64,000 nucleotides of DNA from Myxococcota bacterium (lineage in GTDB: Bacteria; Myxococcota_A; UBA9160; UBA4427): assembly GCA_965250285.1 (NCBI GenBank), contig OZ252299.1:5440001-5504000 (forward strand), read 5' to 3'. Numbering within the stretch: the stretch's first letter is position 1; each line of letters begins with the position of its first letter. The notes under the pieces were generated by a model. That model saw only the letters and a program-made list of their open reading frames with translations. It did not search any database and was not told where the DNA came from. This document shows positions 23,955-50,090 of the stretch, piece after piece. A program made the position numbers and the translations under genes.

Positions 23955-23996
23955 GAAGCCCAGCGGCGGGCGCTGGGTGGTCAATATTAGTTAGGC
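23955..23996 (+). other. attI site (crossover G/TTAGGC at 23990)
   Basis: GTTAGGCCGCGTA (23990-24002) is the exact reverse complement of the first cassette's end (24418-24430); no attC upstream; AT-rich tcaatatta and a cccagcg/cgctggg hairpin precede it. Confidence 0.75.
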
Positions 23997-24034
23997 CGCG
24001 TAACCCGGCGCTTGAGCGTGGTTGTCCAACGGGC

Positions 24035-24460
24035 ATGCTTCGGGCCTTCGGTCGATCTCTTCTTTGGCTGTTTGCCGCTATCGGTGTCGGCGCGGTTTCC
24101 CTGTCGGCGTACTCCGTCTCTGGCAGAGTTGTCTGCAGGCTCGAAGACCGCGTCTCTGCCCAACTCTTGCAACTGATGTCCGCCCTCGAGTTCTATCGGC
24201 TCGATAATGGTCGGTTTCCAACAACGGAGCAGGGCCTCGAAGCTTTGCTGTCGAGACCGGCGGCTGGTCCCCAGCCCGAATCGTACCCCGAAGGTGGGTA
24301 TCTCGGTGAACGTGCCTTGATATGTGACCCATGGGGCGAGCCAGTTCGTTACTCACACGAGAGCGACTCACTTGTGCTTGTTTCGATCGGTGGTCCGGAA
24401 TGCATATGCGAACACGCTACGCGGCCTAACAAGCCGTTGCAGCGGACTTGCTCCCGCTGA
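24035..24460 (+). CDS. cassette 1: GspG-like (T2SS pseudopilin C-terminal domain) protein
   Basis: ALEFYRLDNGRFPTTEQGLEAL...YPEGGYL...DPWG; reads into attC. Confidence 0.75.
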   Translation: MLRAFGRSLLWLFAAIGVGAVSLSAYSVSGRVVCRLEDRVSAQLLQLMSALEFYRLDNGRFPTTEQGLEALLSRPAAGPQPESYPEGGYLGERALICDPWGEPVRYSHESDSLVLVSIGGPECICEHATRPNKPLQRTCSR

Positions 24461-24475
24461 GGCGATATCGGGTCG

Positions 24476-24484
24476 TGGTAGAAT
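24476..24484 (+). promoter_or_regulatory. extended -10 motif TGnTAnnnT inside attC (first example; present in all 49 intact attC)
   Basis: TG, TA and the final T are invariant while the n positions vary across attC copies. Confidence 0.7.
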
Positions 24485-24602
24485 GTCGGCTACCCGAGGC
24501 GTTCAGCCGCTGCGAGCAAGGTCGCCGCAAGCCGCTGAACGCCGACCGTTAGGCAGCGTTCCAGTCAGAGTCATGGTCTTCGGTGCAGCCTGAGATGACG
24601 CA

Positions 24603-24818
24603 GTGACGAAGCGGAATCTGATCGCGATCGCTTCCGTCCTGTTCCCCGCTATGGCAGTTGCTGGCTGCGTCGATCTCGTACTTCCCATCGAGATCGTCGA
24701 TTTCGGTGCAGGAATCGCAGGTGACCGTCCTCTTGCGAAGTGGGTCCCTTACTTCGCCATCGCACTTGGCGGTACGTTCGGAAGCTGGGCGCTATGGAGC
24801 CGCCTGCCTCCCGACTAG
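24603..24818 (+). CDS. cassette 2: small membrane protein
   Basis: Only ORF between attC sites; hydrophobic. Confidence 0.5.
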   Translation: MTKRNLIAIASVLFPAMAVAGCVDLVLPIEIVDFGAGIAGDRPLAKWVPYFAIALGGTFGSWALWSRLPPD

Positions 24819-24990
24819 CTGACAGCTATTCGTGTCGCGAGGCTCCACGCTGCCTAACAAGCCGTTGCAGCGGACTTGCTACCGCTGAGGCGATATCGGG
24901 TCGTGGTAGAATGGCCGGCGTCCGAGGCGTTCAGTCGCTGCGAGCAAGGCCGCCGCAAGCCGCTGAACGCCGACCGTTAGGCGGCGTGCC

Positions 24991-25275
24991 GTGATCACGA
25001 GGTACTCGGTCGCAGCTCTGGCAGCCGTCGCTGTCACGGGCTCCGCGTTCTGGTTCGGCTCGTCGTTGCTCGACCGCGAAGCAGCGGCGCATTGCCCCAA
25101 GAACGACCTATACGAACTCTCGAAGCGCAGCCGATCGGAATGCCGAGTCGCCCATTCGCGCGACTGTAGTTCCTCCTGCGAGCTGGTCATGACCGATGTC
25201 TATGCGGCCGACTGCAGCAGCTCCATGTTCGTTGAGGTGTGCGTTCCGTCGAGCGAGCTTTCTGCGTTCCGATGA
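24991..25275 (+). CDS. cassette 3: small Cys-rich exported protein
   Basis: Fills the cassette; duplicated at 27909. Confidence 0.6.
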   Translation: MITRYSVAALAAVAVTGSAFWFGSSLLDREAAAHCPKNDLYELSKRSRSECRVAHSRDCSSSCELVMTDVYAADCSSSMFVEVCVPSSELSAFR

Positions 25276-25459
25276 GTTGCTCAAGCGAAATGGCGTGCCA
25301 GACGCCGCCTAACAAGCCGTTGCAGCGGACTTGCTGACGCTGAGGCGTTGTCGGGTCGTGATAGAATCACGGACATCCGAGGCATTCAGTCGCTGCGAGC
25401 AAGGCCGCCGCAAGCCGCTGAACGCCGACCGTTAGACCGCCAGAGCACAGGAGGCGCGC

Positions 25460-26077
25460 GTGGCAAAGCTCAAGGACAAGGTGCTTGAGATCGCCGGAAT
25501 TGCGAAAGAGTGCCCGGAGAATCTCCAGGCGATTTGCTTCGAGTTGCTGCTTCGGCACCACCTCGACTCGCTCGCGCCGCGATCGCCGAAGCCAACGCCA
25601 CAGGCGACACCTGAGCCCGAGACTCCTAAGGAAGAGAAGAAGCAGACGGTCGAAGAGGCGGCTTCTTCTCAAGACGATCTCTCGGAGACAGATCTCCACG
25701 TCAAGGTCCGTCGGTTCATGGAGAAGTACGCACTATCGATAGAAGACTTGAGCAACCTCTTCTACAAGGAAGATGGAGAAGTGCTCCCGTTGTACGAGGA
25801 TTTGAAGACAACGAGGCTCGCTGAGGGGCAGGTTCGAATCGCACTTCTGCAGGCGCTGCATTCGGCGATCTCGCACGGCGAATTCTCTTGCCAGGTCGAA
25901 GCTGTCCGAGCGGAGTGCAAAGACCGAAAGTGCTACGACCAGAACAACTTCGGCAGCAACTTCACCAAGAACGCAGTTCTTTTCGACTTCGACAAGTACG
26001 GCAAGTCGGTGAAGACGATCAAGCTGTCTGAGGATGGTCGAAAAGAACTTGCGGCAGTCGCCAAAGAGCTTCAGTGA
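25460..26077 (+). CDS. cassette 4 gene A: hypothetical, possible C-terminal winged helix
   Basis: AGGAGG SD; lower GC; ends KTIKLSEDGRKEL. Confidence 0.8.
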   Translation: MAKLKDKVLEIAGIAKECPENLQAICFELLLRHHLDSLAPRSPKPTPQATPEPETPKEEKKQTVEEAASSQDDLSETDLHVKVRRFMEKYALSIEDLSNLFYKEDGEVLPLYEDLKTTRLAEGQVRIALLQALHSAISHGEFSCQVEAVRAECKDRKCYDQNNFGSNFTKNAVLFDFDKYGKSVKTIKLSEDGRKELAAVAKELQ

Positions 26078-26083
26078 GCACGC

Positions 26084-26905
26084 GTGGACGCGACTCTCAA
26101 GACATTCCACGATGATCTGAAGGCGCTCAAGCGGGATCTCAAAGCTGAAGAGAATCCACGGGTTGCCAAGAAGGGCCTACGCGAACGCGCTGAGGAACTC
26201 GGGTCACGGTGGTTCAGCGAGCTGGCGCCTGGCCTTTCAAAACTGGGGTTCTCGGCTGAACTCGTCGAGAAGTACTCCGCTGCCTGCGCGCGACTAATCA
26301 AACTCAGCGCCCCAAACAACCTGAAGAAGAGCTACCTCGAGTCCATCGATGTACTCGTCAAGCCTATGCGCGACGAGCTGATTCTTCCGATCAAGTCCGG
26401 CGTCGTATCCAGCCAAGCGGTCTCTCCCTTCAATGAGTTCGTCGCCAACCTTGAAGCCGCTGAAGAGAGCGCCTATTTCCAAGAGTCGATCGATTGTGCC
26501 AAGAGCGGCTACCTACGCGCGGCGGCAGTCCTAGGCTGGTGCGCTGCGGTCGATCGAATTCATCGCAAGATTGAGGCAGATGGGTTCTCAGTCTTCAATG
26601 TGGCATCTGCCCAAATGGCAAGTCAAAAGAAGGGCCGCTACAAGCGATTCAACCAGACGCAGAACGTCACCTCAATCAGCGAGCTCCGTGAGGTCTTCGA
26701 TACCACGATCCTTTGGGTCATCGAAGGCATGGGGTTGATTGATTCGAACCAGCACACTCGACTCCGAAGCTGCTTCGAGATGCGCTGCCACTCTGCCCAC
26801 CCAGGCGACGCGCCGATCACTGAGTACAACCTGCTCTCGTTCTTCTCCGATCTGCAACAGATCGTCCTAGAGAATCCGTCCTTCGAAATCCCGACCGATA
26901 GCTAG
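26084..26905 (+). CDS. cassette 4 gene B: HEPN-like protein
   Basis: YFQESIDC..GYLRAAAVLGW helix and R-x4-H motif RCHSAH. Confidence 0.7.
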   Translation: MDATLKTFHDDLKALKRDLKAEENPRVAKKGLRERAEELGSRWFSELAPGLSKLGFSAELVEKYSAACARLIKLSAPNNLKKSYLESIDVLVKPMRDELILPIKSGVVSSQAVSPFNEFVANLEAAEESAYFQESIDCAKSGYLRAAAVLGWCAAVDRIHRKIEADGFSVFNVASAQMASQKKGRYKRFNQTQNVTSISELREVFDTTILWVIEGMGLIDSNQHTRLRSCFEMRCHSAHPGDAPITEYNLLSFFSDLQQIVLENPSFEIPTDS

Positions 26906-27038
26906 GCGTCTGGCGGTCTAACAAGCCGTTGCAGCGGACGTGGCAACGCTGTGCCGATATCGCTCGTGGTAGAATCACGGAGTCCCAGGCTTCGGCCGGC
27001 GCGGTGCAAGGTTGTGCCACGCCGCTGAACGCCGATCC

Positions 27039-27320
27039 GTTAGGCCGCGTGGCACAAGGCCCTCTAGTTGCTGGGTGCCGATTCCTGCCCACCGCCTTCT
27101 CGAACCCGGCAGCTCGTTGCGAGCTCGCTAGCTAGTTGACCTGCTCGCTTCGCCCTTAGGTCACTCCCGACAGATCGCATGCGACGCATCGCCAAAGTGG
27201 CCACAACCGGCTCTCTGGGGCGAGCTTCGCCTTCGGTCTGCTCGATCCAACTCGACTGCCGAATCCCATCTTGGCAGGGGGTAGGGCGGTAGAGGGTCTG
27301 CTCTTCGCACGCGGTCTAAC
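27039..27320 (+). ncRNA. ORF-less structured cassette, copy 1 of 9
   Basis: Conserved 281-283 bp body, no conserved ORF, nested helices. Confidence 0.55.
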
Positions 27321-27442
27321 AAGCCGTTGCAGCGGACTTGCTACCGCTGAGGCGCTTTCGGTTCTTGGTAGAATCTCGGGCGTCCGAGGCGTTCAGCCGC
27401 TGCGAGCAAGGCCGCCGCAAGCCGCTGAACGCCGACCGTTAG

Positions 27443-27806
27443 ATGGCGGAGACGCGAGATAGGACGTTACAAGTTCAAGCTTGGCCAGAAGCCACGACGA
27501 AAGCGCCGGTTAGATTCCGGGCGTACGCGCATTCGTCGAGGTGGCGATCCGACGGCAGCAGGAAGAGAGCGGGGCGATCCGATTTCTCCCGAAGAGCGTT
27601 GGGTTCCGAGCTTCGACGACGTAATTGCAGCATTGGTCGTCATTTCGCTGATCACATTCTTCATTGCCGCGTTCTGTTCTCTTGGCCACTGTTCATGTGC
27701 GGGGCTGAGTGCTTACTCGAACTCTCGAGTGAGTCTCGTCACTCCGTTGCCCCTGCAGATTCGCCCGCCATCTAACAAGGCGTTGCAGCGGACTTGCTTA
27801 GGCTGA
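27443..27806 (+). CDS. cassette 6 (three identical copies): hypothetical, reading frame ambiguous
   Basis: An ATG frame (27443-27775) and an ATA-initiated TM-containing frame (27459-27806) are both open. Confidence 0.4.
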
Positions 27807-27908
27807 GGCGATATCGGGTCGTGGTAGACTGCCGGGTGTCCGAGGCATTCAGCCGCTGCGAGCTAGGTCGCCGCAAGCCGCTGAACGCCGACCGTTAGGC
27901 GGCGTGCC

Positions 27909-28193
27909 GTGATCACGAGGTACTCGGTCGCAGCTCTGGCAGCCGTCGCTGTCACGGGCTCCGCGTTCTGGTTCGGCTCGTCGTTGCTCGACCGCGAAGC
28001 AGCGGCGCATTGCCCCAAGAACGACCTATACGAACTCTCGAAGCGCAGCCGATCGGAATGCCGAGTCGCCCATTCGCGCGACTGTAGTTCCTCCTGCGAG
28101 CTGGTCATGACCGACGTCTATGCGGCCGACTGCAGCAGCTCCATGTTCGTTGAGGTGTGCGTTCCGTCGAGCGAGCTTTCTGCGTTCCGATGA
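27909..28193 (+). CDS. cassette 7: duplicate of cassette 3
   Basis: Identical protein; one synonymous difference seen. Confidence 0.6.
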   Translation: MITRYSVAALAAVAVTGSAFWFGSSLLDREAAAHCPKNDLYELSKRSRSECRVAHSRDCSSSCELVMTDVYAADCSSSMFVEVCVPSSELSAFR

Positions 28194-28368
28194 GTTGCTC
28201 AAGCGAAATGGCGTGCCAGACGCCGCCTAACAAGCCGTTGCAGCGGACTTGCTGACGCTGAGGCGTTGTCGGGTCGTGATAGAATCACGGACATCCGAGG
28301 CATTCAGTCGCTGCGAGCAAGGCCGCCGCAAGCCGCTGAACGCCGACCGTTAGGCAGCGGAAGCGGCA

Positions 28369-28710
28369 ATGACGCGTCGAACTCCGCTCCTCATCTTCGG
28401 AACCTTGGCATTCGGCATGCTGGTAGCGTGCTCGCCCGACGTATGGAGCGCACAAGAGCTCTCCGACTGGCACGCGCGAAACGCGGAGGGTTCGCCGCAC
28501 TACAGTCCGCTCTACTACACCGGTACCGACGACGACTACCACCACTTTAAGTGTCGCGCGATGGACACGTGGGTTGTAGTTCGCGTACCGCGGGACCAGA
28601 TCACGATTCCCGAGGTCCCGGCGTCACAAGATCCCGGTGCCGTGCCACGGCTGTACGCTGTCGACCCAGCGAATGACTATCGAATCCTCGAAGCTTCGGC
28701 AGGCCAGTAG
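28369..28710 (+). CDS. cassette 8: putative lipoprotein
   Basis: Lipobox LVAC. Confidence 0.7.
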   Translation: MTRRTPLLIFGTLAFGMLVACSPDVWSAQELSDWHARNAEGSPHYSPLYYTGTDDDYHHFKCRAMDTWVVVRVPRDQITIPEVPASQDPGAVPRLYAVDPANDYRILEASAGQ

Positions 28711-28862
28711 AGCGCACGCCGCTGCCTAACAAGCCGTTGCAGCGGACTTGCTGACGCTGAGGCGATATCGGGCCGTGGTAGAGTCACGGGCGTCCAAGGC
28801 ACTCAGTTGCTGCGAGCAAGGCCGCCGCAAGCCGCTGAACGCCGACCGTTAGGTGGCGAGAC

Positions 28863-29219
28863 TTGGAAGTTGACGACGTAACGACGCTCAATCGGCCCAC
28901 TGGCCCGGAAGAGCTCGCCCTCGTCGAGCAGTCCGGCTTTCGTCGTTGGCCGCCTCGACTGCCTGAGCAGCCGATCTTCTATCCAGTCACGAATGAAGCC
29001 TACGCCGTCGAAATCGCCAAGAACTGGAACGCCCGCGACGGCAAAGCCGGGTACGTAACCCGATTCAGCGTTCGGTCTAGTTTCATGAGCCAGTACGAGA
29101 TCCAAACTGTGGGCGCCAAGCATCACACAGAGTGGTGGGTGCCTGCCGACGAACTCGACGAGCTGAATGACAACATCGTCGGCACGATCGAAGTCATCCA
29201 GGCGTTCGATCCGAGCTGA
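28863..29219 (+). CDS. cassette 9: small protein of the family often labelled ADP-ribosylation/crystallin J1
   Basis: RPTGPEEL...WPPRLPEQPIFYPVTNEAYA...GYVTRF...EWWVPADEL. Confidence 0.8.
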   Translation: MEVDDVTTLNRPTGPEELALVEQSGFRRWPPRLPEQPIFYPVTNEAYAVEIAKNWNARDGKAGYVTRFSVRSSFMSQYEIQTVGAKHHTEWWVPADELDELNDNIVGTIEVIQAFDPS

Positions 29220-29353
29220 CGCGCTCGCCACCTAACAAGCCGTTGCAGCGGACTTGCTCCCGCTGAGGCGATATCGGGCCGTGGTAAACTGGCCGGCGTC
29301 CGAGGCATTCAGCCGCTGCGAGCCAGGTCGCCGCAAGCCGCTGAACGCCGACC

Positions 29354-29634
29354 GTTAGGCCGCGTGGCACAAGGCTCTCTAGTTGTTGGGTGCCGATTCC
29401 TGCCCACCGCCTTCCCGAATCGGGCAGCTCGTTGCGAGCTCTGGCGTTGGCTGATCTGCTTGCTTCGCCCTTAGGTCACTCCCAATAGATCGCATGTGAC
29501 GCATCGCCAAAGTGACCACAGCCGGCTCTCTCATGCGCGCTTCGCCTTCGGCCTGCTCATCCCACCCGAGAGCAGAATCGAGGCTTGGCAGGGGGTAGGA
29601 CGGCAGAGGGTCCGTCCTTCGCACGCGGTCTAAC
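29354..29634 (+). ncRNA. ORF-less structured cassette, copy 2
   Basis: Homologous to 27039-27320. Confidence 0.55.
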
Positions 29635-29796
29635 AAGCCGTTGCAGCGGACATCGTCCAGCTGAGGCGATATCGGCTCTGTTAGCTTCTTGGCAACGAAC
29701 CAAGTGCGTTCTGCGGAGCCGGTCAGCAGCTGGCCGATGCCGCTGAACGCCGACCGTTAGGCGGCGTTTCGTGCCAAGCACGGAGTTTCAGCGACC

Positions 29797-30084
29797 GTGA
29801 CCAGCTACTTGCGGCGTGGCCCAGGTGCCAAGAAAGCTGAGGCTCTCGGCCGTGCCGAGACCGCACTCCGTGATGCTATCTCTCGGGGCGATGCTTCTAA
29901 GGCTATCGCCAAGCTCGCTGATCGCGTCCGAGACGCGAAGCTTGGCTACCTCAAAGCGAGACTCTTCGAGGCCCGCGGCGACTTCAGTCGAGACGCCCCT
30001 TCCCAGCAGGTCTCCAATCTCGAGTCCGAGCAGGCCGCTTGGTCGACGCTCTCCGTCGACGACGTCATCGACCGCTATCGCTAA
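29797..30084 (+). CDS. cassette 11: hypothetical helical protein
   Basis: GGAG SD; fills the cassette. Confidence 0.65.
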   Translation: MTSYLRRGPGAKKAEALGRAETALRDAISRGDASKAIAKLADRVRDAKLGYLKARLFEARGDFSRDAPSQQVSNLESEQAAWSTLSVDDVIDRYR

Positions 30085-30242
30085 GGCTCGGGACTCCAAC
30101 GCCGCCTAACAAGCCGTTGCAGCGGACTTGCTACCGCTTGAGCCGATTTGGGTCGTGGTACCATGCCGGCAATCGATGGCGTCTCAGCAGGTTGTGCCAA
30201 ATCGGCGCAAGCCGCTGAACGCCGACCGTTAGGCGGCGTTAC

Positions 30243-30653
30243 ATGGACGATGTCGCGTACGTCCGACGGGTCATGTGGCTGCCTTCGTTCGTCCCGTTTG
30301 TGCTTGCCGCAATGGATGATCTTTCGAACTACTCCGTTGGTTCATACATCCAAAGTAGTCTCATGCTGGGAGCTGCGACCTATCCTGCCTTCGTTCTGAT
30401 CTCGCGGTACGCGTTTCGCGCCGACGGGCGGCGTGCCCATTGGGCGCTGTTGTTCGCTTCTCCCATCGCCTTTCCAGTCTTCTACGCGTCTGTGAATGGA
30501 ACGATCTGGTACTCTGAAGATGGCTGGGGCATAGGCCTGTATGTGTTTATGCTCTTCTATTCTCTCGTGCTCTGTATTCCACTCGGCTATGCATTCGCGC
30601 TCGTAGCATGGGCTGCCAGAAGACTCTGGCTCCGTCGCGACAACGCCGCCTAA
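30243..30653 (+). CDS. cassette 12: membrane protein, paralog of 46649
   Basis: MDDVAYVRRVMWLP; stop is the TAA of attC. Confidence 0.75.
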   Translation: MDDVAYVRRVMWLPSFVPFVLAAMDDLSNYSVGSYIQSSLMLGAATYPAFVLISRYAFRADGRRAHWALLFASPIAFPVFYASVNGTIWYSEDGWGIGLYVFMLFYSLVLCIPLGYAFALVAWAARRLWLRRDNAA

Positions 30654-30770
30654 CAAGCCGTTGCAGCGGACTTGCTAACGCTTGAGGCCAACCGGCTCGT
30701 GGTAGAATCTCGAAGTCCGAGGCGTTGTCAGTCGCTGTGCCAGATCGGCGCAAGCCGCTGAACGCCGACC

Positions 30771-31052
30771 GTTAGGCCGCGTGGCACAAGGCCCTCTAGT
30801 TGTTGGGTGCCGATTCCTGCCCACCGCCTTCTCGAATCGGGCAGCTCGTTGCGTGCTCGCCAGCTATCTGACCTGCTCGCTTCGCCCTTAGGTCACTCCC
30901 GACAGATCGCATTCGACGCATCGCCAAAGCGGCCACAACCGGCTCTCTGGGTCGAGCTTCGCCTTCGGTCTGCTGGATCCCACTCGACTGCCGAACTCCA
31001 GCTTGGCAGGGGGTAGGGCGGTAGAGGGTCTGCTCTTCGCACGCGGTCTAAC
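30771..31052 (+). ncRNA. ORF-less structured cassette, copy 3
   Basis: Homologous to 27039-27320. Confidence 0.55.
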
Positions 31053-31196
31053 AAGCCGTTGCAGCGGACTTGCTACCGCTGAGGCGATATCGGGTCGTGG
31101 TAGACTGATCAGCGTCCGAGGCGTTTAGTCGCTGCGAGCAAGGCCGCCGCAAGCCGCTGAACGCCGACCGTTAAGCGGCGAGCGCGGAGCAGACGC

Positions 31197-31586
31197 GTGT
31201 CGGCCACACGCAAACCGTATGCGGCAGAGTTCGATGGAGCGTTAGAGCTCTGGCACTCCGGCGACCCGGAGGCTGCTATCACGCAGCTGCAAGACCTGGC
31301 GGTCCGGTATCCGAACGAAGCCGCAATCCACGGCATGCTGGGCGGGTATCTCTACGACCACGGTGGCCTGCTCGAGGCCGAGCCACATGCTCGGGCAGCC
31401 GTGCGGCTGTCCCCACGGTCTCAGCTAGCCGCTCGGACCCTGTTTCACGTTCTTCACGATCTCGGTCGGCTCACGGATGCGATCGAAGAGCTCAAGCGCT
31501 TCAGGTCAGCCACCGAAAGTGACGAGCTTCGTCGCGAATGGTCGCGTCTCGTCCGAGCCGTCGAGGCCGAACTTGGCGAGCGGTGA
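31197..31586 (+). CDS. cassette 14: TPR protein
   Basis: AITQL...YPNEAAIHGMLG...ARAAVRLSP...LHDLGRLTDA. Confidence 0.75.
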   Translation: MSATRKPYAAEFDGALELWHSGDPEAAITQLQDLAVRYPNEAAIHGMLGGYLYDHGGLLEAEPHARAAVRLSPRSQLAARTLFHVLHDLGRLTDAIEELKRFRSATESDELRREWSRLVRAVEAELGER

Positions 31587-31721
31587 TTCGTCTCGCCGCC
31601 TAACAAGCCGTTGCAGCGGACTTGCTAACGCTGAGGTGATTTCGGGTCGTGGTAGACTGGTCGAAGTCTGAGGCGTTCAGCCGCTGCGAGCAAGGCCGCC
31701 GCAAGCCGCTGAACGCCGACC

Positions 31722-32002
31722 GTTAGGCCGCGTGGCACAAGGCCCTCTAGTTGTTGGGTGCCGATTCCTGCCCACCGCCTTCTCGAATCGAGCAGCTCGT
31801 TGCGAGCTCGGCAGCTAGCTGATTTGTTCGCTTCGCCCTTAGGTCACTCCCGACAGATCGCATGCGACGCATCGCCAAAGTGGCCACGGCCGGCTCTCTG
31901 GGGCGAGCTTCGCCTTCGGCCTGCTCATCCTACTTGAGTGCAGAACTCCAGCTTGGTAGAGGGTAGGGCGCCAGGGGGTCTGCTCTTCGCACGCGGTCTA
32001 AC
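31722..32002 (+). ncRNA. ORF-less structured cassette, copy 4
   Basis: Homologous to 27039-27320. Confidence 0.55.
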
Positions 32003-32146
32003 AAGCCGTTGCAGCGGACTTGCTACGGCTGAGGCGTTCTCGGTTCTTGGTAGAATCTCGGGCGTCCGAGGCGTTCAGCCGCTGCGAGCAAGGCCGCCGC
32101 AAGCCGCTGAACGCCGACCGTTAGGCAGCCGGAACGCCAAGCCAAG

Positions 32147-32647
32147 ATGAAACCCCTCGCCCGCCTTGGCTTCATCCTCCTCGGTGTGTACGGGACCCTG
32201 GCGTCGCTGCGAGGTGTCTCCTACTTCATCCGCACGGCGGCGGTCACCCCTCCGGCCGACTCAGGTCAGACGCTCTCTGCTCTCATCATCACCGCGAGCT
32301 TGTTCGATCTCGCGCCGCCGATTCTTCTCATCTGGTTCAGCAAGCGCCTCGCAGACTTCGCGTTTCCTTTCGATCAAGAGGCAAGCCTCGATGTTGGCGC
32401 CTCATCTTTGGTTTCCGCTGGCGTCTCTGTTCTCGGGGTCTACGTCGCGGCGATCGGTGTCTCGGGCTTGGTTGGTGCTGCGGTCGCTGCGGGTACTTCA
32501 GTGCGCTTCCTCGAGAACCCTGCCTTTCGCGAGGGGCTGTTCTCTGGCCTCGGCGAGTCCGTAGCGTTGGTGCTCATCGGCCTGGGCTTGTTCGTCTACG
32601 GTCCTCGGCTGGTCTCGGGCCGAGAGGGCAGAGCGCCGGCTGCCTAA
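32147..32647 (+). CDS. cassette 16: 4-TM membrane protein
   Basis: Hydrophobic; stop in attC. Confidence 0.75.
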   Translation: MKPLARLGFILLGVYGTLASLRGVSYFIRTAAVTPPADSGQTLSALIITASLFDLAPPILLIWFSKRLADFAFPFDQEASLDVGASSLVSAGVSVLGVYVAAIGVSGLVGAAVAAGTSVRFLENPAFREGLFSGLGESVALVLIGLGLFVYGPRLVSGREGRAPAA

Positions 32648-32782
32648 CAAGCCGTTGCAGCGGACTTGCTTACGCTGAGGCGATTTTGGTTCTTGCTAGA
32701 ATCTCGGGCGTCCGAGGCGTTCAGTCACTGCGAGCAAGGCCGCCGCAAGCCGCTGAACGCCGACCGTTAGCCAGCACACGAC

Positions 32783-33331
32783 ATGCGTTGCCAGATCTTC
32801 GTCTCTGTCCTGCTCCTGCTCGCAGCTTCAGGCTCGCGCGCTGAGGAGAACCAACCTGCTTCGAAGGACGAGTTCGGTTCGGTCGTAGTCGTCAGCGAAC
32901 GAATCGAAGCCGCGATCGCGGCGGGTGAGCTTCACCGGCAGACGAAGAACTTCGGTTGGGCCAATCCTGGCTGCAAGCTCCAGGGCTATCCGATTCTCGA
33001 GAGATCGCTCGTCCTCGACACCGAGGGGCAGATTCGGCTCTATGATCGCTCGCAGATCGTCTCGCATGGTGCGATTGAGCGTATCCGAAGCTTCTTTGAC
33101 GAGCGCGGTCGCCTGCGGATCGTCGAGCGGAAGCTCGGCAACACGATCGACCTGGTTAGAGTAAGCGAGTCCGGCAAGATTTTGCTCTCCCGGGTATCCC
33201 ATGACCGCGGCGAAACCTGGCATCAGTACTCCGCTGACTTCGACGACTGGTACATGAATCCGCGCACACCGAGCGAAGTCGAGGCTGAGTTCGCTGAATC
33301 AGAGCCGACGTGTGAGCAAGGTGCAGGCTAA
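32783..33331 (+). CDS. cassette 17: exported hypothetical protein
   Basis: Signal peptide; stop in attC. Confidence 0.75.
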   Translation: MRCQIFVSVLLLLAASGSRAEENQPASKDEFGSVVVVSERIEAAIAAGELHRQTKNFGWANPGCKLQGYPILERSLVLDTEGQIRLYDRSQIVSHGAIERIRSFFDERGRLRIVERKLGNTIDLVRVSESGKILLSRVSHDRGETWHQYSADFDDWYMNPRTPSEVEAEFAESEPTCEQGAG

Positions 33332-33464
33332 CAAGCCGTTGCAGCGGACTTGCTAACGCTGAGGCGATCTCGGGTCGTGGTAGAATCTCGGGTGTCCGAG
33401 GTGTTCAGTTGCTGCGAGCAAGGCCGCCGCAAGCCGCTGAACGCCGACCGTTAGGTGGCGAAGC

Positions 33465-33890
33465 GTGAAGCTGCTGCTCGCCATACTTGTTCCGGTCGTG
33501 CTCGGTTCTTCATTGGCGCTTAGCTGCGTTCCGGACCCGGTGCCTGTGTTGGTGTTCAACAACTCAGGCTCGCAGCTCTTACTCTTCGTCTACGACCGTG
33601 GCTACCGGCTTAGCCCGGGTGACTCTCAGCAGATTGATTTGTACGGCGATTTCAGCACCATATCTGTCTACCTTCCCCGCGGTCGATTCGAATACCTGGT
33701 CTTCTTCGATGAGCTCACGGTCGACTTTCAGAGGCTGATCGGCGGCGAGTACCGCATCCAGATCGAACCAGACCTCCGTGCATTCATCCTGGAGAAGCGC
33801 ACTCGTCCCCCTGTTGACACTGAGAAGATGGTTCAGCCTCCTGGGTTTCCTCTGGTTCCTAAGCTCGCAGAGGCTTGGTCTGCCACCTAA
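33465..33890 (+). CDS. cassette 18: putative lipoprotein
   Basis: ALSC lipobox-like; stop in attC. Confidence 0.7.
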   Translation: MKLLLAILVPVVLGSSLALSCVPDPVPVLVFNNSGSQLLLFVYDRGYRLSPGDSQQIDLYGDFSTISVYLPRGRFEYLVFFDELTVDFQRLIGGEYRIQIEPDLRAFILEKRTRPPVDTEKMVQPPGFPLVPKLAEAWSAT

Positions 33891-34008
33891 CAAGCCGTTG
33901 CAGCGGACTTGCTGACGCTGAGGCGATATCGGGTCGTGGTACCATGTCGGTTGTCAATGGCGTCTCGGCAGGCCGTGCCAGGTCGGCGCAAGCCGCTGAA
34001 CGCCGACC

Positions 34009-34290
34009 GTTAGGCCGCGTGGCACAAGGCTCTCTAGTTGTTGGGTGCCGATTCCTGCCCACCGCCTTCTCGGATCGAGCAGCTCGATGCGAGCTCGCTA
34101 GCTAGTTGACCCGCTCGCTTCGCCCTTAGGTCGTTCCCGACAGATCGCATGCGACACATCGCCAGTGTGGCCACAACCGGCTCTCTGGGGCGAGCTACGC
34201 CTTCGGCCTTGCTCATCCCACTCGACTGCCGAACTCCAGCTTGGCAGGGGGTAGGGCGGCAGAGGGTCTGCTCTTCGCACGCGGTCTAAC
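34009..34290 (+). ncRNA. ORF-less structured cassette, copy 5
   Basis: Homologous to 27039-27320. Confidence 0.55.
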
Positions 34291-34420
34291 AAGCCGTTGC
34301 AGCGGACTTGCTACCGCTGAGGCGCTTTCGGTTCTTGGTAGAATCTCGGTCGTCCCAGGCGCTCAGTCGCTGCGAGCAAGGCCGCCGCAAGCCGCTGAAC
34401 GCCGACCGTTAGGCAGCGGG

Positions 34421-35032
34421 ATGAGTGTCCACCCCGACCAAGTCAAGCCGAATCGCAAGAGTGCACTCACCGGTGGGGCTGCGCTTTTCGTCTTCCTCGG
34501 CTTTATCGTGTTCCTCGCGGTCTTCGCCGGCGATACGTCGCTTCTCTGGAAGCTCGGCGCCGTCGGGTTGCTATCAGCTGGGATCCTGGCTTCATTCCTA
34601 TGGTCGGTGCTGGGGCGAGGTGATTCTCCGACTCCACGGGGCCGTGAGCTTCGGATCGAACGGGGCCGCGTAGCTCAGGTCGAAGGCACCAAGGTCGTCG
34701 CCAGTATCGATGCAACGAAGCCGTTCGCGTACTCGATTCTTGATCGGCACATCGCGACAGACTCTCAGTTCCGCCTGTACCAAGGCCGCGTGGAACTGAC
34801 CTTCTTCAACTCCGACCCTGGCGGCGATGCAGTTGTTCGCGACGTCATCCAGATTAGCTGGCCGCCTCCGAGTCGCGGTGCCAGCAGAAGCGTGGGTCCC
34901 TCATGGGTCGATGGGCTGTCTGCTCAGGCCGATGCTCCGCCCGGCCCGAAGCAAGCACGTTGGCTTGAAGCCCTTACTCTACTCGTGGTCGCCGGTGCAT
35001 TCGCGATCGCATTCGTGGTTCTCTGGCGCTAG
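34421..35032 (+). CDS. cassette 20: membrane protein
   Basis: ATG just after attC; 3 TM segments. Confidence 0.7.
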   Translation: MSVHPDQVKPNRKSALTGGAALFVFLGFIVFLAVFAGDTSLLWKLGAVGLLSAGILASFLWSVLGRGDSPTPRGRELRIERGRVAQVEGTKVVASIDATKPFAYSILDRHIATDSQFRLYQGRVELTFFNSDPGGDAVVRDVIQISWPPPSRGASRSVGPSWVDGLSAQADAPPGPKQARWLEALTLLVVAGAFAIAFVVLWR

Positions 35033-35186
35033 GGGGGAACGCGCCGCAGCCTAACAAGCCGTTGCAGCGGACTTGCTGACGCTGAGGCGGTATCGAGTCA
35101 TGGTAGAATGCCGGGCGTCCGAGGCGTTCGGTCGCTGCGAGCAAGGTCGCCGCAAGCCGCTGAACGCCGACCGTTAGGCGGCGCTC

Positions 35187-35603
35187 GTGAGGCTGCTCGT
35201 ACTAGCGACGCTGACAGCATTCCTCGCCTTTCCCCTCGGCGCGTGGGCGCGTTGTCCGCGCGTGTCGGGCCCCCTCGCAGAGTCCGACCTTCGGTCGGTC
35301 GATCTCATCGTCTTCGGTCGCGTCGTGCACGTCGAGCAGGTGCCGAGTGCGCCTCATGAGCGGTTCGCCGACATCCTGGTGCAAGCGCGCTGGCAGGGCG
35401 AGTCACTCGAACGGGTCAGAGTTTGGCCTCCCGACAGCGTTCACGGCCCACGCTTCGTCGCGGGCAGCGAGTTTCTCGTCTTCGCAAACCGGGTCGGCGA
35501 CCGCTACGAAGCCAGCATGTGCCTTCCTTCATGTACCGGGTCCAACTGCCTATACCAGCTAAAACTCCTAGGCGACCCAGTCGAGCGATTCGATACCGGC
35601 TAG
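35187..35603 (+). CDS. cassette 21: exported TIMP/NTR-like protein
   Basis: Signal peptide then C; DLIVFGRV, F..GSEFLVFA, SMC. Confidence 0.6.
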   Translation: MRLLVLATLTAFLAFPLGAWARCPRVSGPLAESDLRSVDLIVFGRVVHVEQVPSAPHERFADILVQARWQGESLERVRVWPPDSVHGPRFVAGSEFLVFANRVGDRYEASMCLPSCTGSNCLYQLKLLGDPVERFDTG

Positions 35604-38740: not shown

Positions 38741-38889
38741 CTCGTCCGCCGCCTAACAAGCCGTTGCAGCGGACTTGCTAACGCTGAGGCGATATCGGGT
38801 CGTGGTAGACTGGCCGGTGTCCGAGGCGTTCAGCCGCAGCGCGCAAGGCCGCCGCAAGCCGCTGAACGCCGACCGTTAGGCGGCACTCG

Positions 38890-39255
38890 ATGCTTGGCCT
38901 GGCTCGCGCACGGGGCTTGGGTGCTCGCTTGGAGAACGTGGCTCTCTTTGCAGGGCTCACTACTGTGTCCCTGCTCTTCGTGGCCTTGCGCAAGACTTAT
39001 CTCTATCCCGACGATGTCACCATTCCATACCTAAGCGGTCCCAGGCTCTGGTTCTCCGCGAGTCTAATTGCAGGTACCGTCGGCGCCTCTTTGGTGCTTC
39101 GTGTTCGGCGCTCGCAGCGTCTCCGTTTGCGCGGCGTCGCTGCTCTTTCGCTGTCTGCGAGTCCGCTCGTTCTCGTGCTCGCGCTGCTTGTTGTGGTCGC
39201 CGTGGCCTATGTGGCCGGGGTCCAGGTTTTCATCTGGGCGCAAGGTGCCGCCTAA
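38890..39255 (+). CDS. cassette 29: membrane protein
   Basis: 3 TM segments; stop in attC. Confidence 0.7.
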   Translation: MLGLARARGLGARLENVALFAGLTTVSLLFVALRKTYLYPDDVTIPYLSGPRLWFSASLIAGTVGASLVLRVRRSQRLRLRGVAALSLSASPLVLVLALLVVVAVAYVAGVQVFIWAQGAA

Positions 39256-39388
39256 CAAGCCGTTGCAGCGGACTTGCTCCCGCTGAGGCGATATCGGGTC
39301 GTGGTAGACTGGCCGGCGTCCGAGGCGTTCAGCCACTGCGAGCAAGGCCGCCGCAAGCCGCTGAACGCCGACCGTTAGGCGGCCGCTC

Positions 39389-39772
39389 GTGCACGTTCGT
39401 GTGATCTTCATCGGTCTGCTGCTGCTCGGCTCAGCTGCTGGCGACGTCGCTCTTGCAGAACCGGCTTGCCAGATGCCGCCTGATTCTGCCTCGGTCCGAT
39501 CTCGGGTCCTGGGGGCGACGCGTCTGCTTCCAACTTACGTCGATGGAAAGATGGTCGGGCTCACCGTCGACCAGATCGATCCCGACAGTCTCCTGGCACC
39601 TTCCGATCTGCGCGTTGGTGACATGATCGTTGCAGTCAACGGACTCGATATCACCAACCCAAAGTCCGGTAAAGAACTCCTCTGTCGCCTGGGTCGATCA
39701 GAACCGGTCACTATTCATGTTGAGCGAGATTCCGGCGAGCGCGTCCCCATCACCATCGCCGCGGCCGCCTAA
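39389..39772 (+). CDS. cassette 30: exported PDZ-domain protein (GspC PDZ-like)
   Basis: DGKMVGL...PDSL...LRVGDMIVAVNG...VERD. Confidence 0.75.
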   Translation: MHVRVIFIGLLLLGSAAGDVALAEPACQMPPDSASVRSRVLGATRLLPTYVDGKMVGLTVDQIDPDSLLAPSDLRVGDMIVAVNGLDITNPKSGKELLCRLGRSEPVTIHVERDSGERVPITIAAAA

Positions 39773-39905
39773 CAAGCCGTTGCAGCGGACTTGCTAACGC
39801 TGGTTCGATATCGGGTCATGGTAGACTGCCGGGTGTCCGAGGCGTTCAGTCGCTGCGAGCAAGGCCGCCGCAAGCCGCTGAACGCCGACCGTTAGGCGGC
39901 CGCGG

Positions 39906-40352
39906 GTGGGTAGCGAAGCCGATCAGATCGAGAAGATCCTTTCTCGCCGCAAGAATGCGCGCGCGAGGCTTTCGCTGTCCTACATGTCCGACACAAAGTG
40001 GGCTCGCGCGCTCACAGCGCTCGCCGAGAAGCACCCGGGCCTCCATTGCACATGGAAGCTGGTAGGCAACCCGGAGCCGTGTCCAGGCCATCTGCCGATC
40101 GAGCCCCCGTTGCGCCAGCAAAGCCACCTCGACGACGGCTGGCTGCTGGCGCCGTTCTTCTTACTCCCGAACTACAGCGATGTCGAATGGCTGGAGGTGC
40201 CAGCTCGAGCCCGTTGGCAGCCGCATCCGAAGCTAGAGCCCGTCACTTCTACTCAAGACATTCAGTCGATCGCCCAAACCCTCGAGGCCGTTGGCTCTCT
40301 CGAACTCGAGGCAACTGAGACGCACCTGCGGCTATACGGCTATCGCCCCTAG
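39906..40352 (+). CDS. cassette 31: hypothetical (DUF6678-like)
   Basis: SYMSDTKW...YSDVEWLE...LRLYGY. Confidence 0.65.
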   Translation: MGSEADQIEKILSRRKNARARLSLSYMSDTKWARALTALAEKHPGLHCTWKLVGNPEPCPGHLPIEPPLRQQSHLDDGWLLAPFFLLPNYSDVEWLEVPARARWQPHPKLEPVTSTQDIQSIAQTLEAVGSLELEATETHLRLYGYRP

Positions 40353-40528
40353 ACGCGCGCCGCCTAACAAGCCGTTGCAGCGGACTTGCTCACGCTGAGG
40401 CGTTGTCGGGTCGTGGTAGAGTCACGGGCATCCGAGGCGTTTAGTCGCTGCGAGCAAGGCCGCCGCAAGCCGCTGAACGCCGACCGTTAGGCGGCGCGGG
40501 TATCGCTGCAATCGCTAGCGTCACGGGG

Positions 40529-40894
40529 ATGCCGATCGGTAGGTCGCTCACTTATCCGGGCCGCGCAGTAGCCGCTTTCTTGGCCGTCTGGGGCATCGGG
40601 CTGGCCGTAGCATCAGCAGTCTCTCTCGTGCTTGGGCAGTTTCCTGCCTCGCTTGGCCTTGGCGGCGCGATCTCTGCTCTCGTAGTGACTTCCCTTGTGT
40701 CTGCCTACGCAATTCGGTCCGGCCTCGCTCGGCTAGCTCTCGCGTCGTACGCTGCTTGGTCGGTCCTGCTCTTCGGGCTGTTTTTCCATGCCGTCTATGA
40801 CCCTGGTCGTCCACAAGACGTGTTTGGCTATGCGTTTGCGGCTCTCTTTCTCGGCCTTCTGGGTCTCTATCTCGCGCGACAGCTGCGGCACTAG
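40529..40894 (+). CDS. cassette 32: 4-TM membrane protein
   Basis: Hydrophobic ORF filling the cassette. Confidence 0.7.
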   Translation: MPIGRSLTYPGRAVAAFLAVWGIGLAVASAVSLVLGQFPASLGLGGAISALVVTSLVSAYAIRSGLARLALASYAAWSVLLFGLFFHAVYDPGRPQDVFGYAFAALFLGLLGLYLARQLRH

Positions 40895-41035
40895 CAGGTT
40901 GTCGCGTCGCCGCCTAACAAGCCGTTGCAGCGGACTTGCTAACGCTGAGGCGATATCAGGTCGTGGTAGAATGGCGGGCGTCTGAGGCGCTCAGTCGCTG
41001 CGAGCAAGGCCGCCGCAAGCCGCTGAACGCCGACC

Positions 41036-41374
41036 GTTAGATGGCGGAGACGCGAGATAGGACGTTACAAGTTCAAGCTTGGCCAGAAGCCACGACGAAA
41101 GCGCCGGTTAGATTCCGGGCGTACGCGCATTCGTCGAGGTGGCGATCCGACGGCAGCAGGAAGAGAGCGGGGCGATCCGATTTCTCCCGAAGAGCGTTGG
41201 GTTCCGAGCTTCGACGACGTAATTGCAGCATTGGTCGTCATTTCGCTGATCACATTCTTCATTGCCGCGTTCTGTTCTCTTGGCCACTGTTCATGTGCGG
41301 GGCTGAGTGCTTACTCGAACTCTCGAGTGAGTCTCGTCACTCCGTTGCCCCTGCAGATTCGCCCGCCATCTAAC
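41036..41374 (+). mobile_element. cassette 33: third copy of cassette 6
   Basis: Sequence matches 27438-27776. Confidence 0.9.
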
Positions 41375-41516
41375 AAGGCGTTGCAGCGGACTTGCTTAGG
41401 CTGAGGCGATATCGGGTCGTGGTAGACTGCCGGGTGTCCGAGGCATTCAGCCGCTGCGAGCTAGGTCGCCGCAAGCCGCTGAACGCCGACCGTTAAGTGG
41501 CACGATCGGCGGCCAG

Positions 41517-41987
41517 GTGGTGACTCTCGAACTCCGGTGGTCCAAGACGAAGCTCTATCTGTATCTGGCCGGCTCTTGCGCTTTCGTAGCTGGCAGCATT
41601 CTGGCCGATCTCCAGTGGTGGGAACGCGCGCTCGCTGCTGTCATTGGTGTCGTCGGCTCGGTGGCTCTTGCGCTGCGCCTTCAGCGGCAGACCCAACCGG
41701 TCTTGGTCATCTCGCCGGAAGGAGTTCAAGACTCCCGACTGACGCCGTCCCTCATGCCGTGGTCAACGATCGAGGCGGTGCAGTTCGAACCCAAGTACTT
41801 CCGCGGTGGTGCGATCCTCGTTGACCTGCACGCCGGTCTTCCAACTCCGACGGTCAACGCCAGCCTCTTCACGACACGAGGTCACTCGCCGACAGCTCAA
41901 GAAGGGCGTGTCAGGCTGCCGCTGTACGATCTGTCCTTCGACTCAGGCGCGGTGCGTCAGGCTCTCGAAGCCACGCGTGCCACCTAA
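41517..41987 (+). CDS. cassette 34: 2-TM protein with PH-like domain
   Basis: PVLVISPEGVQD...MPWSTIEAV. Confidence 0.7.
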   Translation: MVTLELRWSKTKLYLYLAGSCAFVAGSILADLQWWERALAAVIGVVGSVALALRLQRQTQPVLVISPEGVQDSRLTPSLMPWSTIEAVQFEPKYFRGGAILVDLHAGLPTPTVNASLFTTRGHSPTAQEGRVRLPLYDLSFDSGAVRQALEATRAT

Positions 41988-42121
41988 CAAGCCGTTGCAG
42001 CGGACTTGCTAACGCTGAGGCGATATCGGGTCGTGGTAGACTGGCCGGTGTCCGAGGCGTTCAGCCGCAGCGAGCAAGGCCGCCGCAAGCCGCTGAACGC
42101 CGACCGTTAGGTGGCGGGGGA

Positions 42122-42583
42122 ATGGAGCCGGCGACAGACGACGACCTGCGCCCAGTACTCCCCGGAGAGCGCTGGACGCCACCTACTAACTTGGCAGCAA
42201 GACTCTTCTTCACCCTCCTTCGCCGCATACATGACCAACAAGACTGGGTCTGGCGGGGCGACGAGCCACACGTCAGTCTGGTGTTTCTGACTGCCATCCC
42301 CCAGGTTCTAAACGTGGCGACCCTCTTGGAATTCTTCATCCCACGTGAGAACGCCATCAGGCTAGTCGGCCCCGAACTCTCAAGCGCTATCGGCGTCTGC
42401 GCTGTTTCGCTGCCTGTTCTTCTTGAGGTCTGGTGGCTTCGCGAGCCTGGGCGACTCCACGTGGTGATCTGGGAAGCAGATACCTATCGATACTTGTCGG
42501 GCCCTATTGGTACTGCCCTGGTGGTCGCATACGTAGTGGGTTCGTTTCTTCTCTTCGGTCTAGTCGCCACGCCCGCCACCTAA
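42122..42583 (+). CDS. cassette 35: membrane protein
   Basis: Stop in attC. Confidence 0.7.
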   Translation: MEPATDDDLRPVLPGERWTPPTNLAARLFFTLLRRIHDQQDWVWRGDEPHVSLVFLTAIPQVLNVATLLEFFIPRENAIRLVGPELSSAIGVCAVSLPVLLEVWWLREPGRLHVVIWEADTYRYLSGPIGTALVVAYVVGSFLLFGLVATPAT

Positions 42584-47589: not shown

Positions 47590-47746
47590 CCGGTTCGCCG
47601 CCTAACAAGCCGTTGCAGCGGACTTGCTAACTCTGAGGCGATATCGGGTCGTGGTAGACTGGCCGGCGTCCGAGGCGTTCAGTCGCTGCGAGCAAGGCCG
47701 CCGCAAGCCGCTGAACGCCGACCGTTAGGCGGCCTGGCCGACCCAC

Positions 47747-48259
47747 ATGCCGGACCCGACAGACACGCTGATGATCCTCGTAGAGGCCGCTGCCGCCGTA
47801 GCGGGTTTCTCGGGCGTAGTGGTCGTCTTCGGTCGCCGTTCGGCTGGCGCCTGGTCCGATCTCGAGCGCACTCGCTTGTTCAATCTTCTCTTCACGAGCT
47901 TCACAGTTCTCTTCTCATCGCTCGGAGCGCTCGTCCTACTTCATGCAGAGCTGAGCGATTCTACGACCTGGCGAATCGGGAGCATTAGCTGGTCCGTTTT
48001 GTCGACTTGGCAGATCGCATCGGTCGCACGAGCCTACTCCTCCCTTTCGCGCAGTGATCCCAATCGCCCACACGTAGCCATTCCGGTAGTTCTTCTCGGG
48101 TTGACGGCTGGTCTTGTGGTTCTCAATCTGTACAACGCCTTTGTAGGCACGCCTGAATTCTGGCGTTTTCTTGCAGCGCTAGTCTGGCTTCTGGCGCTCG
48201 CCTGGTACTCGTTCGCACAACTTCTTCTGGTAGCCAGCCGAGGCGAGCAGGCCGCCTAA
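47747..48259 (+). CDS. cassette 46: membrane protein, AGFSG family
   Basis: EAAAAVAGFSGVVVVFGRR. Confidence 0.75.
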   Translation: MPDPTDTLMILVEAAAAVAGFSGVVVVFGRRSAGAWSDLERTRLFNLLFTSFTVLFSSLGALVLLHAELSDSTTWRIGSISWSVLSTWQIASVARAYSSLSRSDPNRPHVAIPVVLLGLTAGLVVLNLYNAFVGTPEFWRFLAALVWLLALAWYSFAQLLLVASRGEQAA

Positions 48260-48390
48260 CAAGCCGTTGCAGCGGACGTGGCAACGCTGTGCCGATATCG
48301 CGCGTGGTAGAATGTCAGCATCACAGGCTTCGGCCGGCGCGGTGCAAGGTTGTGCCACGCCGCTGAACGTCGACCGTTAGGCGGCGCGAG

Positions 48391-48879
48391 TTGCGAGCCT
48401 CTTCGATCCATACCGCCGTGGTTCTCTCAGCCCTCATAGGCTGCGCAACAACCGATCTCGCTGCGATCCCCTCGGAAGAGTGTCACTACTTACTGCCGGC
48501 ATTCTTTGGCGAACAGGACGAGTTTCGCGCGATCCGTCAGGGCGACGACTTTCATGCCGTTCAGGTACCACCCGTCGGGCCGGACGGTGAGTCGCCCGAC
48601 CGCCGCCGCTTCGCCGAGCTAGTGACAGACGTCGATTCTCACTGGTACCGCATCGACGACACCGCTTACGCTTGGTTCGGCGAAGGGCCAGCTCTGCGCT
48701 TTCCCTATTCTGGCTATCTAGCTCGGGTGCGGGAGATCTGTTCCGATTGCGAGGTCGGCGACTCGATCATGCATCCGGCCCCCGGCCTGGAGGCGGAGTG
48801 CATCGCAGTCGACGCTGAGCCGATATCGCTGCCGGACGGGCTTCGATTCCAAGATATCGACCCTGCACACTTCAAGTAG
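48391..48879 (+). CDS. cassette 47: putative lipoprotein
   Basis: LIGC lipobox. Confidence 0.65.
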   Translation: MRASSIHTAVVLSALIGCATTDLAAIPSEECHYLLPAFFGEQDEFRAIRQGDDFHAVQVPPVGPDGESPDRRRFAELVTDVDSHWYRIDDTAYAWFGEGPALRFPYSGYLARVREICSDCEVGDSIMHPAPGLEAECIAVDAEPISLPDGLRFQDIDPAHFK

Positions 48880-49045
48880 TCCGCACACGCTCACTTCGCG
48901 CGCCGCCTAACAAGCCGTTGCAGCGGACTTGCTAACGCTTGAGCCGTATCGGGGCGTGGTAGAATTGCGAAGTCCGAGGCGTTCAGTCGCTGCGAGCAAG
49001 GCCGCCGCAAGCCGCTGAACGCCGACCGTTAGGCCGCGAGAAGCT

Positions 49046-49297
49046 GTGCAGATGCACATCGTCGCATTCGCTGCGTTCGCTGCGGCTTCGGCGGTCTTCC
49101 TCGTCAAGATCGTTCCGCGGCTACTTGTCGATGATCCTCATCAGCCGTGGGCGCTGAGCCTCATGGTTGTGCCCGCCTATCGCCGATACTTCGCGATCTG
49201 TCGAGAGAATCGCGAGTCGCCAATGTGGGCACTCGTTAGCCTTACCCTCTTCGCTGTGTCTGCGGCGGCCGCCGTGGTTGCGGTTCGCTTCGCTTAG
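49046..49297 (+). CDS. cassette 48: small membrane protein
   Basis: Fills the cassette. Confidence 0.6.
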   Translation: MQMHIVAFAAFAAASAVFLVKIVPRLLVDDPHQPWALSLMVVPAYRRYFAICRENRESPMWALVSLTLFAVSAAAAVVAVRFA

Positions 49298-49444
49298 CCG
49301 CTCGCGGCCTAACAAGCCGTTGCAGCGGACTTGCTACCGCTGAGGCGATATCGGGCCGTGGTAGAGTGACGGGTGTCTGGGGCGTTCAGCTGTTGCGAGC
49401 AAGGCCGCCGCAAGCCGCTGAACGCCGAACGTTAGGCGGCGGGA

Positions 49445-49948
49445 TTGCAGGGCCAGCTTTCACTTGAGGCAATTGCGGAGATCTCAATCGCCCTCGCCGG
49501 GTTCTCCGGTCTGATTGCCATGGTCAGAAGTGGCCCCGTCCACGACTGGCACCCGCGGGTTCGACTCGCGTTCTGGATTAGCCTCAACTGGAGTATTGCA
49601 GCGGTGGCCCTGAGCCTGCTCCCGTCGTTGCTAATCACTTTCGGCCCATCAAGCTGGGTACTTCTAAACGGCGTAGCGAGCATCGTTCTTGTTGCTGGAC
49701 TGGCGTTGATGCTCTGCGCGCATCTTCATCTGAATCGCCAAGGATCACCAACGCAGAACCCGTGGCATTGGGTGGCGAACATCTCCGTCATTGCCGTCGG
49801 TGCGGTCGGAACCCTGTCGGCTCTGCTTGGCGCTGGCGACGGCGCGAGCTTCGAGTCGTTCAGATTCGGGGTCATCTCTTGCCTACTGGCTGCGTTGCCG
49901 GGCTTCTTGGCGAGCTTCCGAGTTCGAAGTCCCTCGCCCGCCGCCTAA
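49445..49948 (+). CDS. cassette 49: membrane protein, AGFSG family
   Basis: EISIALAGFSGLIA. Confidence 0.75.
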   Translation: MQGQLSLEAIAEISIALAGFSGLIAMVRSGPVHDWHPRVRLAFWISLNWSIAAVALSLLPSLLITFGPSSWVLLNGVASIVLVAGLALMLCAHLHLNRQGSPTQNPWHWVANISVIAVGAVGTLSALLGAGDGASFESFRFGVISCLLAALPGFLASFRVRSPSPAA

Positions 49949-50090
49949 CAAGCCGTTGCAGCGGACGTGGCAACGCTGTGCCGATATCGACCGTGGTAGA
50001 CTGGCGGAGTCCCAGGCGTTCTGAGCCGCGGTGCAAGGTCGTGCCACGCCGCTGAACGCCGAACCGTTGGACGTCGTGAAGAGGAGCTCC

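Follow-up and report, generated by a model that had tools for sequence, protein, structure and literature searches.

Extended complementarity between the ends of gene cassettes in a chromosomal integron of a Myxococcota bacterium

The two halves of the R box of an integron gene cassette, R'' and R', meet only in the excised circle. It is known that the substrate of the integrase IntI is the folded bottom strand of attC, with L and R as its two integrase-binding boxes (PMC11641012; PMC5027507), and that in arrays a mismatch between R'' and the variable part of R' is allowed (PMC5371416). Most cassettes were described to pair with themselves past the 7-nucleotide (nt) R'/R'' boxes, namely over 9-11 consecutive nt (Bouvier 2009, PMC2727003, with reference to Rowe-Magnus 2003 and Sundstrom 1991 for the extension), and the extension was likewise described as general in integrons (PMC8352920). 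Here, the cassette ends of an integron array from a Myxococcota bacterium (UBA9160; UBA4427) were analyzed in a window of 64,000 nt, i.e., the whole stretch between positions 5,440,001 and 5,504,000 of contig OZ252299.1 (assembly GCA_965250285.1). The extended match between the ends of a cassette is real, already known and widespread; in this array it is one base longer and unusually uniform.

Cassette sites were located using anchors sliced from the window sequence. The cassettes are arranged in tandem and in one orientation, as expected of an integron, with 49/49 attC sites on the + strand. The array and the arms of its first and last cassettes are as follows:

23990..50066, + strand: cassette array of 49 cassettes (37 distinct) with a single attC family of 129-135 nt
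23990..24002, + strand: 5' arm of cassette 1 (R' plus 6 nt), 13 nt, 13/13 complementary to 24418-24430
24418..24430, + strand: 3' arm of cassette 1 (6 nt plus R''), 13 nt
49431..49443, + strand: 5' arm of cassette 49, 13/13 complementary to 49937-49949
49937..49949, + strand: 3' arm of cassette 49, containing the stop codon of the open reading frame (ORF)

Each cassette start, beginning with the crossover G, was compared to the reverse-complemented cassette end, which terminates in the R'' triplet, and the length of the perfect match was taken as the run. Runs of 10-14 nt with a mode of 13, the range and mode given in the first-pass annotation of this stretch, were observed in 36/49 cassettes, and the nine cassettes named there have a run of 13 in eight cases and of 14 in cassette 4. 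The full distribution comprises runs of 4 (two cassettes), 5 (nine), 7 (two), 10 (two), 11 (one), 12 (ten), 13 (22) and 14 nt (one). An early break, i.e., a run of 4-7 nt with one early mismatch, was found in 13 of the 49 cassettes, nine of these being copies of one cassette, and at most one of the first 13 positions was mismatched in 44/49. Dereplication of duplicates reduced the 49 cassettes to 37, for which the mean run was 11.6 nt as compared to a permutation mean of 7.2 and a permutation maximum of 8.7 (20,000 permutations). Since permuted ends match over far shorter distances, the shared consensus, which the first-pass annotation had named as a possible cause, does not account for the own-end match. 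The comparison to neighbouring cassettes proposed there as well gave matches at the variable positions 6, 7, 8, 11, 12 and 13 of 5.39 out of 6 for the own end, 3.19 for the next cassette, 3.08 for the previous one and 2.96 for all non-self pairs. Hence, own-end pairing extends past 7 nt and lies above that of non-self pairs, as in the known feature. Several other possibilities were considered and rejected: homogenisation with array neighbours, as neighbour pairs are near chance; decay along the intact array, of which there is none (rho 0.31, P 0.06, the trend, if any, being towards more pairing distally); and coding constraint. Using a longest-ORF heuristic, by which 32 of the 37 cassettes have a dominant ORF, a run of 13 was found in 9/15 cassettes with the stop codon in R'' and in 10/17 with the stop upstream. 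The match is therefore retained where the 3' arm forms the last codons of the ORF, as noticed before, and run lengths are alike with and without stop-codon overlap.

The generality of the match was analyzed with a heuristic attC finder which uses only the triplets, the base beside each triplet and the inner stem. It was applied to 80 IntI loci, 40 regions beside IntI genes and 6 plasmid regions; its recall was 49/49 in the window, and elsewhere some sites were missed or miscalled. In arrays with three or more of them, 93 intervals were obtained; once 26 had been discarded as duplicates or for exceeding 900 nt, 61 cassettes of 18 other arrays and 6 Treponemataceae cassettes remained. Related genomes yielded 42 intervals, 6 of them dropped (>900 nt), i.e., 36 cassettes from six genomes. 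An imperfect detector and the dropping of long intervals would blur the signal rather than create it. The 61 cassettes showed a mean run of 8.0 vs 6.0 expected, with an excess of matches through position 12 (28 vs 18.1 expected there) and chance level at position 13 (14 vs 15.5); of the 20 cassettes reaching position 12, two match at 13. In the relatives, the mean run was 9.9 vs 6.1 and the excess continued through position 13 (19 vs 11.9). Among class 1 cassettes, where locus L116 was unusable owing to a missed site and L111-L112 contained no usable cassette, a run of 12 was found in 3/5. The cassettes of one Treponemataceae array (L065:12337-19897) have a run of exactly 8 in 6/6 cases; by eye, their 5' starts carry an apparent small GC-rich hairpin after the 8-nt pairing. 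A general occurrence in integrons was the outcome that the first-pass annotation had said would speak against its proposal, and the extension is indeed the norm, both in print and in these comparison sets.

The positions of the arm differ in how they vary. Positions 9 and 10 are an invariant G and C in 37/37 cassettes, coding or not; the bases past the 7-nt core had been called cassette-specific, which is correct for four of these six positions and incorrect for positions 9-10. The variable positions 6, 7, 8, 11, 12 and 13 are each matched far above expectation, and positions 15-25 are at chance. All four bases are used at position 12, which is nevertheless paired in 34/37 cassettes (92%), and departures from the consensus at positions 6-12 are compensated in 57 cases vs 8 uncompensated. 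An obligatory mismatch at position 14 (2/37 vs 8.3 expected, P 0.003, post hoc) was considered and dropped, since relatives gave 10 vs 7.9. Mismatches of the classes bottom-strand G.T wobble, top-strand and hard numbered 3/2/5 in the window, 2/7/12 in the relatives and 5/3/21 in the other arrays. In two cassettes (window positions 51488-52297 and L101:3858-4401), the third base of the core triplet is changed from T to C at both ends; pairing is kept at 13/13 and 12/13 positions, respectively, and the cassette in the window encodes a methyltransferase.

The L arm of attC allows a comparison within the same sites:

24436..24451, + strand: first attC site, L arm, left half (14 paired bases plus two extrahelical bases)

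Both strands of the L arm lie in one attC and never part, so that it needs no end-copying and serves as an internal control. In the 37 attC sites, L arm positions 1-14 are paired in 97-100% and position 15 in 16%. The L and R arm consensus sequences agree in 8 of their first 10 bases, among them the fixed GC at 9-10. Variation of the L arm in relatives is concentrated at positions 2, 8 and 11-14, with 88 compensated non-consensus and 70 mismatched of 476 cells, which is proportionally as in the R arm (67 compensated non-consensus and 53 mismatched of 360 cells). Apart from R'', L'', L' and R', the attC sites possess an unpaired central spacer, extrahelical bases and a large terminal structure, and the bottom-strand fold of one site gave z = -3.0. 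On the bottom strand, a C takes the place of the usual G as the first extrahelical base in all window sites and in 34/34 distinct L arms of relatives; the extrahelical bases are located at attC positions 16 and 23, and the right spacer measures 7-9 nt.

Related cassettes within the genome bear on the history of the arms. The most amplified cassette and the distal part of the array are listed below:

27039..27438, + strand: cassette 5, first of nine copies (5, 10, 13, 15, 19, 22, 23, 38, 43), about 400 nt
50066..62610, + strand: decayed array tail with degenerate attC sites, cassette-end pairing mostly lost and registers approximate

The nine copies are dispersed, 84-96% identical and without a consistent ORF; they may represent a non-coding or promoter cassette. 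None of their 26 arm columns varies, as compared to 90/258 columns of the body, and a mismatch at arm position 6 (bottom-strand C.A) is kept in 9/9 copies. Three of the nine copies have a different attC interior under unchanged arms, which points to exchange of attC interiors. Cassettes 12 and 44 have both arms in common at 59% body identity. A second cluster of the same attC family (G000:C1:109237-114100) comprises five intact sites and one decayed site with no intI nearby, and its four cassettes have runs of 13, 12, 13 and 9. Between cassette 6 and its colinear homologue in this cluster (54% body identity), arm positions 6-8 are different at either end, and each difference is a compensated transition. 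A 92%-identical cassette pair shows an uncompensated change at position 5. The decayed tail starts abruptly after cassette 49 and extends to about genome position 5509700, with about 20 degenerate attC sites and higher GC.

From these results, we propose that the matched ends, a general feature of cassettes, probably constitute the outer portion of the R arm to which the integrase binds in attC; full pairing is predicted for the excised circle only. The own-end match has a sharp limit, and an L arm of about equal length, with identical fixed bases and similarly compensated variation, is present in the same hairpin; the extension is general in print and in the comparison arrays; the arms are conserved after birth, as seen in the nine-copy family and in cassettes 12 and 44; cassette 6 and its homologue have different arms which are each self-matched; and most of the pairing has disappeared from the decayed tail. 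One IntI monomer would touch about 12-13 bp outward of the cut, and the excised circle would thus require an R-arm duplex of about that length. Cassettes with pairing ends would reinsert at attI more often, and selection for reinsertion would keep the match. At positions 6-8 and 11-13, pairing would be needed and base identity free, allowing drift by compensated change, while positions 9-10 are likely read by sequence. As attC interiors would be exchangeable between cassettes and the arms bound to their own cassette, the latter would look like private barcodes. The L and R arms would both be full-length binding arms for one IntI monomer each, the R arm being complete only in the circle. The bottom strand of the circle form folds more stably than that of the array form in 42/48 cases (mean -3.9 kcal/mol), as is expected from the match itself. 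The longer attC stem in the excised circle, one of two interpretations offered by the first-pass annotation, is supported; the other, templated copying of the ends, is unneeded and without direct support.

Several observations weigh against the binding-arm interpretation. The position-6 mismatch in the most amplified cassette implies that perfect pairing is not required, and the invariance of this family extends some bases beyond the arms. Bottom-strand G.T wobbles are not enriched, although selection on a bottom-strand hairpin might predict such an enrichment, and the near-uniform base usage at the paired position 12 demands many compensated transversions. The L-arm variants derive from few attC subfamilies and are non-independent, and the L-arm register was picked among three spacer lengths by maximal pairing. 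Furthermore, the ceiling of 8 in Treponemataceae is shorter than the proposed footprint, and the proposed IntI contact length is drawn from analogy with other tyrosine recombinases.

Alternatively, one end might have been copied once from the other at cassette birth, by template switch or hairpin fill-in over a lineage-fixed length, and preserved by selection later, which we regard as improbable. Such an event would explain why the match ends at a sharp position that differs by lineage (13 in this array, 12 elsewhere and 8 in 6/6 Treponemataceae cassettes), and the near-uniform and yet 92% paired position 12, the 57 compensated vs 8 uncompensated departures, the lack of wobble bias among mismatches and the two cassettes with the same core-triplet change at both ends are in line with it; additionally, cassette genesis is called unresolved in published work (PMC5371416; PMC12901181). 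However, positions 9-10 are fixed regardless of coding, implying an arm derived from the site and not from captured sequence, the L arm displays the same pattern without end-copying, and homologous cassettes have different self-matched arms, although separate births are possible at 42-54% body identity. Moreover, this genome yielded no donor locus whose flank matches; here, homologues outside the array exist for only two cassette ORFs (47% and 40% identity), too distant for flank comparison, and the proteins of cassettes 6 and 12 were not found with the queries used in 67 family genomes. The stricter version, in which the ends are written by fixed-length templated copying at birth and the ceilings of 8, 12 and 13 nt are the ruler mark of the machinery, has a slim chance of being correct; if true, it would provide a sequence handle on cassette genesis.

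The ends might also be re-matched at each excision cycle through repeated correction of mismatches in the folded circle, by hairpin mismatch repair or quasi-palindrome template switching. This process would yield exact compensation without wobble bias in the L and R arms alike. Folding of neighbour pairs is confined to the array, and these pairs are indeed near chance. We nonetheless consider it doubtful: the position-6 mismatch stayed uncorrected in 9/9 dispersed and diverged copies, the 92%-identical pair retains its uncompensated change at position 5, and of 14/62 intervals with a non-canonical triplet (several of the 14 being mis-registered) one has the same change at both ends. Frequent correction of arm mismatches is unlikely because the mismatch was kept in all nine copies and most triplet changes are one-sided; slow correction in the hairpin has a small probability. 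Finally, pairing of the ends in mRNA or linear single-stranded DNA, as a stem around the ORF which tunes translation or stability apart from recombination, is very unlikely. ORFs often start just past the arm, at cassette position 16 in 10/32 cassettes, with no space there for a Shine-Dalgarno sequence, and their stops lie inside R'' in 15/32 and otherwise mostly 14-24 nt before the R'' end. Yet, the crossover base itself is the first to pair, the pairing has its counterpart in the L arm, and a cassette family without a consistent ORF retains it.

The genetic context agrees with the assignment to sedentary chromosomal integrons. The host genome is a single contig of 6.25 Mb with a GC content of 69%, and the following features precede the array:

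22777..23781, + strand: intI, integron integrase gene upstream of the cassettes and on the same strand, with matches to TIGR02249 and PDB 2A3V
23940..23996, + strand: putative attI with inferred boundaries; the crossover G at 23990 is the start of cassette 1

The IntI protein scored 439 bits against TIGR02249 (cut-off 265), which places it in the integron subfamily of tyrosine recombinases, and it matched IntI4 of PDB 2A3V over its full length (E 1.6e-87; residues 17-332 aligned with one single-residue gap). The candidate attI, placed by sequence only, is the first R' triplet downstream of intI and has no attC preceding it. The intI gene runs in the same direction as the cassettes and its stop lies about 210 nt before attI (22777-23990), the usual layout being divergent. 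An ORF with a match to the type II secretion protein G family runs across attI and cassette 1 (23948-24460). Exact duplicate cassettes are dispersed in the array (6/26/33, 28/41 and 3/7). A transposon or insertion sequence was rejected: the 37 distinct cassettes carry 32 different 13-mers as arms, against one common terminal inverted repeat, the cassettes abut directly at the attC crossover, and the adjoining enzyme is IntI. Three contig sets from one study were aligned to 22500-42400, and among the differences listed all fell in attC interiors and repeated cassette bodies; the joints of these contig sets fell within repeats and are hence uninformative on excised circles.

As the ceiling and the L/R symmetry suggest, the working attC may consist of two arms of about 13 bp rather than of 7-nt boxes, which would matter for synthetic cassette design, for attC models trimmed to the R box and for constraints on cassette genesis; the homogeneous array provides a clean test case. 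As in the extension described by Bouvier (2009), most cassettes here pair past the 7-nt R boxes. The introduction passage of that work states 9-11 nt, with neither a mechanism nor a counting rule; here, a tight distribution peaks at 13 and two positions, 9-10, do not vary. The gap of 1-2 nt between the published values and the 13 here or 12 elsewhere may partly reflect a different counting convention. No statement on a sharp lineage-specific ceiling or on L/R arm symmetry was found in the literature searched, which did not cover subscription reviews and the primary extension papers. The class 1 cassettes aac(6')-Il, aadB and aadA2 have 12-nt matched ends, similar to those found here; in contrast, dfrA14 has a run of 8, blaIMP-1 breaks at 6, the ceiling is 12 and not 13, and the attC sites are heterogeneous. 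No Vibrio array was identified among the comparison loci. Unlike in the Vibrio cholerae repeat (VCR) superintegron, intI and the cassettes point in one direction, the spacer measures 5/7-8 nt and the first extrahelical base is a bottom-strand C instead of G. The locus nevertheless resembles the VCR superintegron in its organization, with intI, a candidate attI and dozens of cassettes whose long attC sites belong to a single family and possess R and L boxes, and its attC sites resemble those of VCR in the unpaired central spacer, the two extrahelical bases 6 bp apart and the large terminal structure.

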